Source: a virus (lineage: Duplodnaviria; Heunggongvirae; Uroviricota; Caudoviricetes). Taken from it: a stretch of DNA of 9,269 nt. The notes under the pieces were generated by a model. It made no database searches. It was not told the DNA's origin and worked only from the letters and a program-made list of their open reading frames with translations. A program made the translations under genes and the position numbers. Shown here one piece after another: positions 861 to 1,784 of this stretch (within the stretch, counting starts at the first letter, position 1; each line of letters starts with the position of its first letter). The stretch is taken from the IMG/VR virus record IMGVR_UViG_2718217789_000012. One strand, given 5' to 3'.

Positions 861-1784
861 TCAGCTTTTCGCCAGAACGGTGACGGCCTTATCGAGTTTT
901 TGCCATCCGCAATAGGTGATTGCCCTGAACGCTGTAGCGTCATTCTGGAAAAGGCTAACCGCCCCTGATTCGGTTTTTATTACCGCCTCATCAGTTGGGG
1001 TTATAACCGTGGCTTCAACGTTAATAATCAGCTTTTGAGCGTCTATCAGCATCATGCGATCCGCCTGTTCGCTCACAATTACCGGTATTCTCAAAAGCTC
1101 TATCTGCCAGAACTCAGCATCAGTAAGCTGTAAGGCGTTTTCTACGGGCAATATTAGCGACGACGTGGAAAGCGTGTTACCGTTCGCTATGTGCTTTTTG
1201 AAAATCTCTATGAAGTTTTCGGCCTCATCAGCACCATTAAGCACGCCCTCAGGGGATACGCCAGCCACCTCCTGATCACTGGAAAGAAATTTTTTATCTA
1301 TTTCTTTCACCGATTCCGATGTGATCAAGTCTCTGATCGCTGAATTTGTACCAGGGGTGCTAAATTTGATTAGCTCGTTATTCAGCATCACAATAGCGCC
1401 AAGTTTGCACAATTTTAGCGCACTTTCGTTTACTTCTCCCTCTTTGACAGGGATTTCTTCGGCTTCTTTAAGCCATTTACTACCCTTGCCTGATATTGAA
1501 TGCAATTTTGCGCCAAACGGAAGATTAAGCGCGCTGCTGATTAGCTTGCCTGGTACAGACTGCGAAAAAATATACTCGCCAAGCTCTCTTACTATCGGCT
1601 CTGCCACCAGCGACGGCATGTTATCCGTAGTCATTCTGTTGACGATGGATTTTTCAAGAAATTTCGATACTGCCGGATCATTTCTTTTCGTCATCTCTAT
1701 AGCGTCAGCATGGCTAAATTTACACGATGCCAGCACGCTGGCGGCGCGAACTGCTGACACGCCTTTCATGTTTTTACAGATCAT
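861..1784 (-). CDS. Hypothetical 307-aa protein; possibly an HK97-fold capsid-like protein or an accessory cargo protein (unresolved)
   Basis: AGGAGGAGG SD (complement of 1791-1799) precedes the ATG at 1784. Long clean ORF. The C-terminal segments DAEFWQIELL and FQNDATAFRAITYCGWQKLDKAVTVL loosely resemble the C-terminal pattern of HK97-type major capsid proteins as I recall it; this is weak, by eye only. Confidence 0.6.
   Translation of the reverse strand: MICKNMKGVSAVRAASVLASCKFSHADAIEMTKRNDPAVSKFLEKSIVNRMTTDNMPSLVAEPIVRELGEYIFSQSVPGKLISSALNLPFGAKLHSISGKGSKWLKEAEEIPVKEGEVNESALKLCKLGAIVMLNNELIKFSTPGTNSAIRDLITSESVKEIDKKFLSSDQEVAGVSPEGVLNGADEAENFIEIFKKHIANGNTLSTSSLILPVENALQLTDAEFWQIELLRIPVIVSEQADRMMLIDAQKLIINVEATVITPTDEAVIKTESGAVSLFQNDATAFRAITYCGWQKLDKAVTVLAKS

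Follow-up and report, generated by a model that had tools for sequence, protein, structure and literature searches.

What does a phage satellite do with a single capsid gene? The 9,269-nt stretch of viral DNA analysed here (hereafter the window; Caudoviricetes, IMG/VR virus record IMGVR_UViG_2718217789_000012) raises this question through an open reading frame (ORF) at positions 861-1784, for which an initial annotation, made from the sequence alone, had considered two options: a capsid protein of a satellite that builds its own heads, or accessory or defence cargo. We find the ORF to encode a homologue of HK97-type major capsid proteins within a classical Gram-negative phage-inducible chromosomal island (PICI) of Escherichia coli O157:H7, an identity and context in which we have high confidence. 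The gene is a core part of the island's late, i.e. helper-exploitation, module, being neither cargo nor a member of a self-sufficient head-building set.

The 307-aa protein is a capsid-protein homologue

The capsid homologue and the genes in front of it, including that for the terminase small subunit (TerS), are arranged as follows.

861-1784, minus strand: capsid-protein homologue, 307 aa, with its ATG at 1784 and its stop ending at 861; mature capsid domain only, without protease part and apparently without delta/scaffold part
1774-1935, minus strand: 53-aa ORF with an acidic tail, overlapping the start of the capsid homologue by 11 nt; matches PHROG 641 (terS) at positions 89-125 (E 3.5e-7)
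1947-2435, minus strand: satellite TerS, 162 aa as annotated; Pfam Terminase_2, PHROG 641 (E 3.6e-43)

ORF 861-1784 is a genuine gene, more than a chance reading frame. Its ATG is preceded, at a distance of 8 nt, by a strong Shine-Dalgarno sequence (AGGAGG) inside the last codons of the 53-aa ORF at 1774-1935, and RefSeq places WP_000562896.1, annotated as 'phage major capsid protein', at identical coordinates. The gene is present in 220 of 5,426 complete E. coli genomes, full-length in every carrier, and is under purifying selection (ratio of nonsynonymous to synonymous substitution rates, dN/dS, of 0.08-0.21 among four E. coli alleles). Its position directly downstream of terS and the 53-aa ORF agrees with the post-terS placement proposed in the initial annotation.

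Profile comparisons indicated the protein to belong among major capsid proteins. Pfam Phage_capsid (PF05065) scored 28.4 bits, above its gathering cutoff of 24.2, with residues 100-300 aligned to positions 47-274 of the 280-position model. The PHROG major head protein families 617 and 10 matched as well (E 1.8e-10 and 5e-8). The NCBIfam equivalog for HK97 gp5, TIGR01554, scored just under its cutoff (26.3 vs 27.5) and aligned only from model position 154. A structure predicted from a 90-sequence alignment reached a predicted local distance difference test (pLDDT) score of 93.1 and a predicted template modelling (pTM) score of 0.88, and replaced an earlier, mediocre AF2 model from 16 sequences (pLDDT 67). 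It displays a helical N-terminal region of ~85 residues, an E-loop hairpin (93-98/117-122), a spine helix (144-166) and A- and P-domain strands, i.e. the N-arm, E-loop, P domain and A domain of the HK97 fold. Encapsulins, which are HK97-fold shell proteins, were among the best structural matches, and the sole match in a profile search of PDB sequences was the Bxb1 capsid protein. At the level of structure prediction the HK97 fold is settled, and the capsid call, tentative when first made, is confirmed by Pfam, PHROG, the predicted structure and its structural matches.

An exhaustive profile search of 1.84 billion representatives returned 2,900 relatives at E≤1e-3, with just 15 at E≤1e-30; no family member turned up when species-representative genomes were scanned with the profile. 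The satellite family comprises 16 clusters with 38-79% identity, every one 307-322 aa in length. In the close family (307-349 aa), 0-13 residues precede the first helix, where the capsid domain of fusion proteins starts. Many remoter relatives measure 630-670 aa, with the match starting near residue 275-310, and others 440-470 aa, with a start near residue 100; 42 of the 71 remote relatives examined have no N-terminal extension. Lack of this extension is not unusual in itself, and is informative only when set against a fusion-type candidate helper and an island without scaffold or protease gene.

The nearest phage relatives are protease::capsid fusion proteins of lambdoid prophages of the Stx1a (Shiga toxin 1a), Stx2c and PPompW types in enterohaemorrhagic E. 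coli (EHEC), with 23-25% identity over ~90% of the protein. Within these 645-aa proteins, Peptidase_S78 covers residues 48-153 and Phage_capsid the C-terminal part; a delta-like region is present as well, since TIGR01554 aligns from model position 3. The island protein aligns to fusion residues 291-625 and thus represents the capsid domain alone.

The gene resides in a classical Gram-negative PICI

The ends and backbone of the host element are defined by these features ('no strand' marks features without an assigned orientation).

92-102, minus strand: attachment (att) core ATGATAGTTAT, island end; second copy at 17443-17453 of the genomic sequence L001
3413-3588, no strand: three GGTAGAGGGCTTT iterons directly downstream of the primase gene (repeat families D4 and D5)
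3595-5349, minus strand: D5/P4-type primase-helicase, the island replication protein (Pfam D5_N, DUF5906 and Pox_D5; PHROG 864, E 9e-173)
6960-7184, minus strand: AlpA regulator (Pfam Phage_AlpA, E 3.4e-16)
7276-8049, minus strand: 257-aa ORF of 30-34% GC, overlapping the integrase stop
8046-9269, minus strand: tyrosine integrase (RefSeq), 93% identical to the integrase of the PICI EcCIIHE3034

The att core at 92-102 ends the island ~760 bp beyond the capsid homologue. Its second copy is found past the integrase at a distance of 9,351 bp (0 chance matches expected), and ATGATAGTTAT at both ends therefore delimits an element of 9.36 kb. The same core has been published for the cspD-clpS PICIs EcCIIHE3034 and EcCI18098 (PMC6092414 supplement). 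Indeed, the island sits between clpS and cspD: to the left of the att core, where portal, protease and head-completion genes were to be sought according to the initial annotation, there are chromosomal clpS and clpA instead. The main genes follow each other on the minus strand in the order integrase, 257-aa low-GC ORF, alpA, icd-like gene, DUF4222 gene, D5/P4-type primase, iterons, small ORFs, terS, 53-aa ORF and, last, the capsid homologue. With int, alpA, pri/rep and its downstream iterons, a single direction of transcription, a size of ~10 kb and a dedicated att site, the element has the hallmarks of a classical Gram-negative PICI. The GGTAGAGGGCTTT iteron stretch at 3413-3588 is the probable replication origin; origins of Gram-negative PICIs have been reported just downstream of the primase gene (PMC6092414).

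Among the island ORFs scanned or annotated (Pfam, PHROG, RefSeq), the only head or packaging families were the terminase small subunit and the major capsid protein; none matched a portal, protease, scaffold, terminase large subunit (TerL), HNH or connector protein. From the set that characterizes capsid-forming PICIs (cf-PICIs)—capsid protein, protease, portal, head-tail connectors, HNH, TerS and TerL—the island thus holds just TerS and the capsid homologue. Lacking genes for portal, protease, scaffold, TerL and connectors, it is not a capsid-forming PICI, and the suggestion of a satellite that builds its own heads is not borne out.

Two further observations concern the island's termini and its integrase-proximal end. 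An imperfect direct repeat of 73 nt (73% identity) lies just inside both ends (window 167-239; L001 17286-17358), each copy containing a tandem ATTAACTACACC; these repeats are probably integrase arm-type sites. The 257-aa low-GC ORF between int and alpA had no Pfam, PHROG, NCBIfam or PADLOC match, does not occur in any of the related E. coli islands that were examined, and is likely to be variable accessory cargo of the island.

The capsid homologue belongs to a conserved, exchangeable late module

The late module as a whole and its remaining small ORFs are the following.

816-3067, no strand: swapped late module, without nucleotide similarity to EcCIIHE3034 (blastn, blastp comparison)
2567-2728, minus strand: helical 53-aa ORF with a weak TSC22 (leucine-zipper-type) Pfam match
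2732-2926, minus strand: 64-aa ORF; homologue of the Klebsiella island 56% identical, Serratia homologue weaker

The integrase, AlpA, DUF4222 protein and primase of EcCIIHE3034 are 87-98% identical to those of the island. Its late module, however, combines Phage_cap_E with head decoration protein D (HDPD) and a Phage_Nu1 TerS, and the capsid homologues of the two islands share no sequence similarity. A common backbone with differing late modules argues that sister islands carry alternative, matched sets of capsid protein and TerS, each of one phage head type.

Conversely, the same late module occurs on different backbones. Synteny was surveyed through exact-protein look-ups and within E. coli genomes. 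In other E. coli islands, which have a different integrase, an att site at tRNA-Pro beside yejM and a RepA-type helicase as replicase, the small ORFs, terS, the 53-aa ORF and the capsid homologue again form one block, at ~96% nucleotide identity. Serratia and Arsenophonus islands have the same gene order, and the 53-aa ORF (1774-1935) is kept there at the same position with 36-43% identity. Klebsiella aerogenes has the capsid homologue but no recognisable terS; the gene that comes after it, at the island end (L019 11000-13297), encodes a 765-aa protein without a Pfam match, possibly cargo.

The reading of the 307-aa protein as accessory or defence cargo that merely occupies the island end draws on the terminal position of its gene and on the Klebsiella relative, which does have possible cargo at that end. 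It is nevertheless highly improbable and did not withstand the comparison: the protein has a capsid fold and no defence-family match (PADLOC, E≤0.01), and the variable gene of this island is rather the 257-aa ORF beside int. The capsid homologue is conserved together with terS in otherwise differing islands; as part of a late module that is found with other integrases and replicases and in other genera, it is not cargo.

An ORF for a helical protein of ~55 aa likewise accompanies the late modules of four genera, its counterparts in Klebsiella, Serratia and Arsenophonus being 31-47% identical (window 2567-2728; L019 9606-9779; L002 8940-9107; L004 9120-9290); in the Klebsiella island it lies directly upstream of the capsid homologue. 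Its product could be a small scaffold-like partner. Combined with a complete HK97 fold predicted at high confidence, the many similar-length relatives that lack an N-terminal extension and the likeness to encapsulin shells, this co-occurrence speaks for a minimal head-builder, in which the island protein would make a whole small shell, perhaps with the ~55-aa protein as scaffold, on a helper portal, taking portal, protease, terminase and tail from Stx-type prophages. Such an island would be an intermediate between classical and capsid-forming PICIs. We consider this very unlikely, given that portal, protease, connector and TerL, all carried by cf-PICIs (10.1101/2022.09.08.507074), are missing here, and that Ccm, the capsid homologue of the Staphylococcus aureus island SaPIbov5, cannot form capsids alone (PMC8569155).

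Capsid homologue and TerS match the head type of a co-resident prophage

The genome that hosts the island also holds a prophage with the head module HNH, TerS, TerL and a Peptidase_S78::capsid fusion. Against the capsid domain of this fusion, the island capsid homologue shows 24% identity (E 4e-21). The two TerS proteins are 44% identical overall. Identity amounts to ~59% within the N-terminal domain and to ~70% across the final ~50 aligned residues, whereas the middle part cannot be aligned. This pattern would be expected if the satellite TerS had retained its contact with the helper TerL but altered its DNA specificity. The nearest phage relatives of the island TerS are the TerS proteins of Stx1a, Stx2c and PPompW phages (46% identity), i.e. 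the same prophages as for the capsid homologue. If the resident prophage is a helper, as we infer, the island encodes a distant homologue of its helper's own capsid protein. Across the 5,426 E. coli genomes, 1,251 contain the helper-type fusion gene, in up to 7 copies, and strain DEC5A appears among the carriers of both this gene and the island capsid gene. This genome also contains a lambda-type prophage, with an S49 peptidase, a decoration protein and an E-type capsid, which is not of the helper head type and was set aside.

The 53-aa ORF at 1774-1935 is similar to the C-terminal segments of the island TerS and the helper TerS at the motif level only, pairwise BLASTP against the island or the resident prophage TerS returning nothing, and its product may act as a packaging-interference factor that competes for TerL.

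A link to this head type is also seen outside E. coli. In Arsenophonus nasoniae (CP123498.1; L004 1999-10948), a related island is inserted into the late region of a prophage, flanked by an HK97-gp10-like gene and the gene for the tail assembly chaperone, and this prophage shares 37% (connector), 38% (tape measure) and 37% (TerS) identity with the E. coli candidate helper. Such a helper-embedded PICI arrangement has been described (PMC10111431).

Since PICIs have been proposed to capture late genes (PMC10111431), the capsid homologue could be a captured helper gene that ordinarily contributes neither to transfer nor to interference and is kept as a reserve copy or for some minor advantage, as reported for c1499, the capsid gene of EcCICFT073. 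We judge this unlikely. The gene is full-length in all 220 carriers and its dN/dS is low; it cannot replace the helper gene, because it comprises neither protease nor scaffold part; and the family is 38-79% identical across four genera yet only ~24% identical to the nearest phage capsid proteins, which argues for long residence in satellites rather than recent capture.

A possible role in redirecting helper head assembly

Established are the fold and the island boundaries, the lack of portal, protease, scaffold and TerL genes, purifying selection on the gene, its conserved synteny in several genera, and the match of both capsid homologue and TerS to one prophage head module in the same genome. 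By analogy with Ccm (24% identity to the capsid protein of phi12), which makes up the pentamers and converts prolate heads to small isometric heads (PMC8569155, PMC5052747), we tentatively propose as the most likely role, giving it somewhat less than an even chance, that the island protein co-assembles with the helper capsid protein and redirects head assembly. Upon induction of a helper-type prophage, the island would excise, replicate via its primase and iteron origin, and express the late module. Its TerS, whose C-terminal segment is close to that of the helper, would recruit the helper TerL to island DNA. The 307-aa protein, having no scaffold or protease of its own, would co-assemble with the helper capsid protein into procapsids and shift head assembly to the satellite's advantage, as does Ccm, through smaller heads or by otherwise putting the helper at a disadvantage.

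Several points weigh against co-assembly. In EcCICFT073, of all Gram-negative PICIs the one studied best, deletion of c1499 did not relieve interference with lambda, and no small capsids were seen; moreover, transfer experiments made use of an island marked with c1499::cat (PMC6092414). More generally, PICI capsid genes have been stated not to be required for transfer (PMC10111431). c1499 is of the lambda E type, a family different from that of the 307-aa protein. As to the helper, its identity is a matter of homology and co-residence only, and the resident prophage copy may not be a working one, because in the one resident prophage examined the annotation marks the gene for the portal as frameshifted.

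A rival account is one of interference only, in which a scaffold-less homologue would be a dominant-negative poison or decoy of helper heads, lowering helper yield without functional satellite-sized heads, while the island itself is packaged as multimers in normal-sized heads. Consistent with this, the protease and scaffold parts of the helper fusion are both missing from the 307-aa protein, EcCICFT073 is packaged in phage-sized capsids despite its capsid homologue (PMC6092414), and the island has a TerS of its own with which to secure packaging. On the other hand, there is no evidence of toxicity to any helper, poisoning would harm heads that the satellite itself needs, and precedents tie capsid homologues to small capsids: besides Ccm, there is PmCI172, which encodes a capsid homologue and produces small capsids, albeit as a correlation (PMC6092414). 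We therefore regard pure interference as a rather unlikely alternative to co-assembly.

A non-coding tail with repeated units follows the capsid gene

Between the capsid homologue and the island end lies one further region.

240-860, no strand: non-coding tail of ~620 bp with repeated units of a hairpin and AATCAAYGGGTTAG

Each unit consists of a 13-16-bp hairpin followed by AATCAAYGGGTTAG, and three are present (504-550, 558-604 and 712-756) where 0.15 are expected. CCCGATATGGKKATCCCCA is found at 293-311, and again in palindromic form at 816-847. An Rfam search of the window gave no match. Positions 646-815 are common to EcCIIHE3034, with 744-815 being 100% identical; as it is partly shared with this lambda-type sister island, the tail is not specific to the present late module. 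A helper cos region within 150-870 was considered and rejected, the only match being a 57-nt fragment (350-406) with ~90% identity to a phage roi gene. The tail is possibly a packaging or protein-binding site.

Comparison with known satellites

Capsid-protein genes are found in 21 of 29 reference Gram-negative PICIs (PMC10111431), and lone capsid homologues in classical PICIs have been documented before (PMC6092414, PMC10111431). For the present island, att site and backbone had been catalogued (PMC6092414), as had the element type, and the gene was annotated correctly. As genome annotation, the finding is ordinary; in the cited literature, we found no description of a variant with an HK97-type capsid homologue and a Terminase_2 TerS matched to the HNH/fusion-capsid head type of EHEC prophages, nor of the clean late-module swap with EcCIIHE3034. 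Its chief value is that of a well-matched test system. Among the late genes of Gram-negative PICIs, none is commoner than that for a capsid homologue, and the sole genetic test, of c1499 with lambda, gave no phenotype. The island and the resident O157:H7 prophage form a cleanly matched pair for such a test, HK97-type capsid homologue and TerS on one side and the corresponding head module on the other, with EcCIIHE3034, at the same att site and with a lambda-type set, as a possible natural control. Because the candidate helpers share the head type of Stx1a- and Stx2c-converting prophages, any interference would bear on the production and spread of Shiga-toxin phages.

With EcCICFT073 and EcCIIHE3034, the island shares int, alpA, a D5-type primase and a late module with a single capsid homologue, and with EcCIIHE3034 also the att site (PMC6092414). 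Their capsid proteins, however, are of the lambda E family (PF03864) and are combined with a D-type decoration protein and a Nu1-type TerS, whereas the island has a PF05065 protein and a Terminase_2 TerS. These differing families imply a different helper head type. cf-PICIs such as EcCIEDL933 or EcCI2 differ in size and gene content: at ~15 kb, they carry protease, portal, head-tail connectors, HNH, TerS and TerL (10.1101/2022.09.08.507074), as compared to TerS and capsid homologue in the 9.36 kb of this island. The fusion proteins of the Stx1a, Stx2c and PPompW prophages align with nearly all 307 residues of their satellite relative, which in turn lacks their first ~290 residues (Peptidase_S78 and the delta-like region) and has several internal deletions. 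No specific similarity to or common descent with Ccm was found for the 307-aa protein. The likeness to SaPIbov5 is instead one of arrangement: in both cases a satellite without portal or protease encodes an HK97-fold homologue of the helper capsid protein at ~24% identity (PMC8569155), and the helper head module, in the candidate helper as in phi12 (PMC8569155, PMC5052747), comprises HNH, TerS and TerL.
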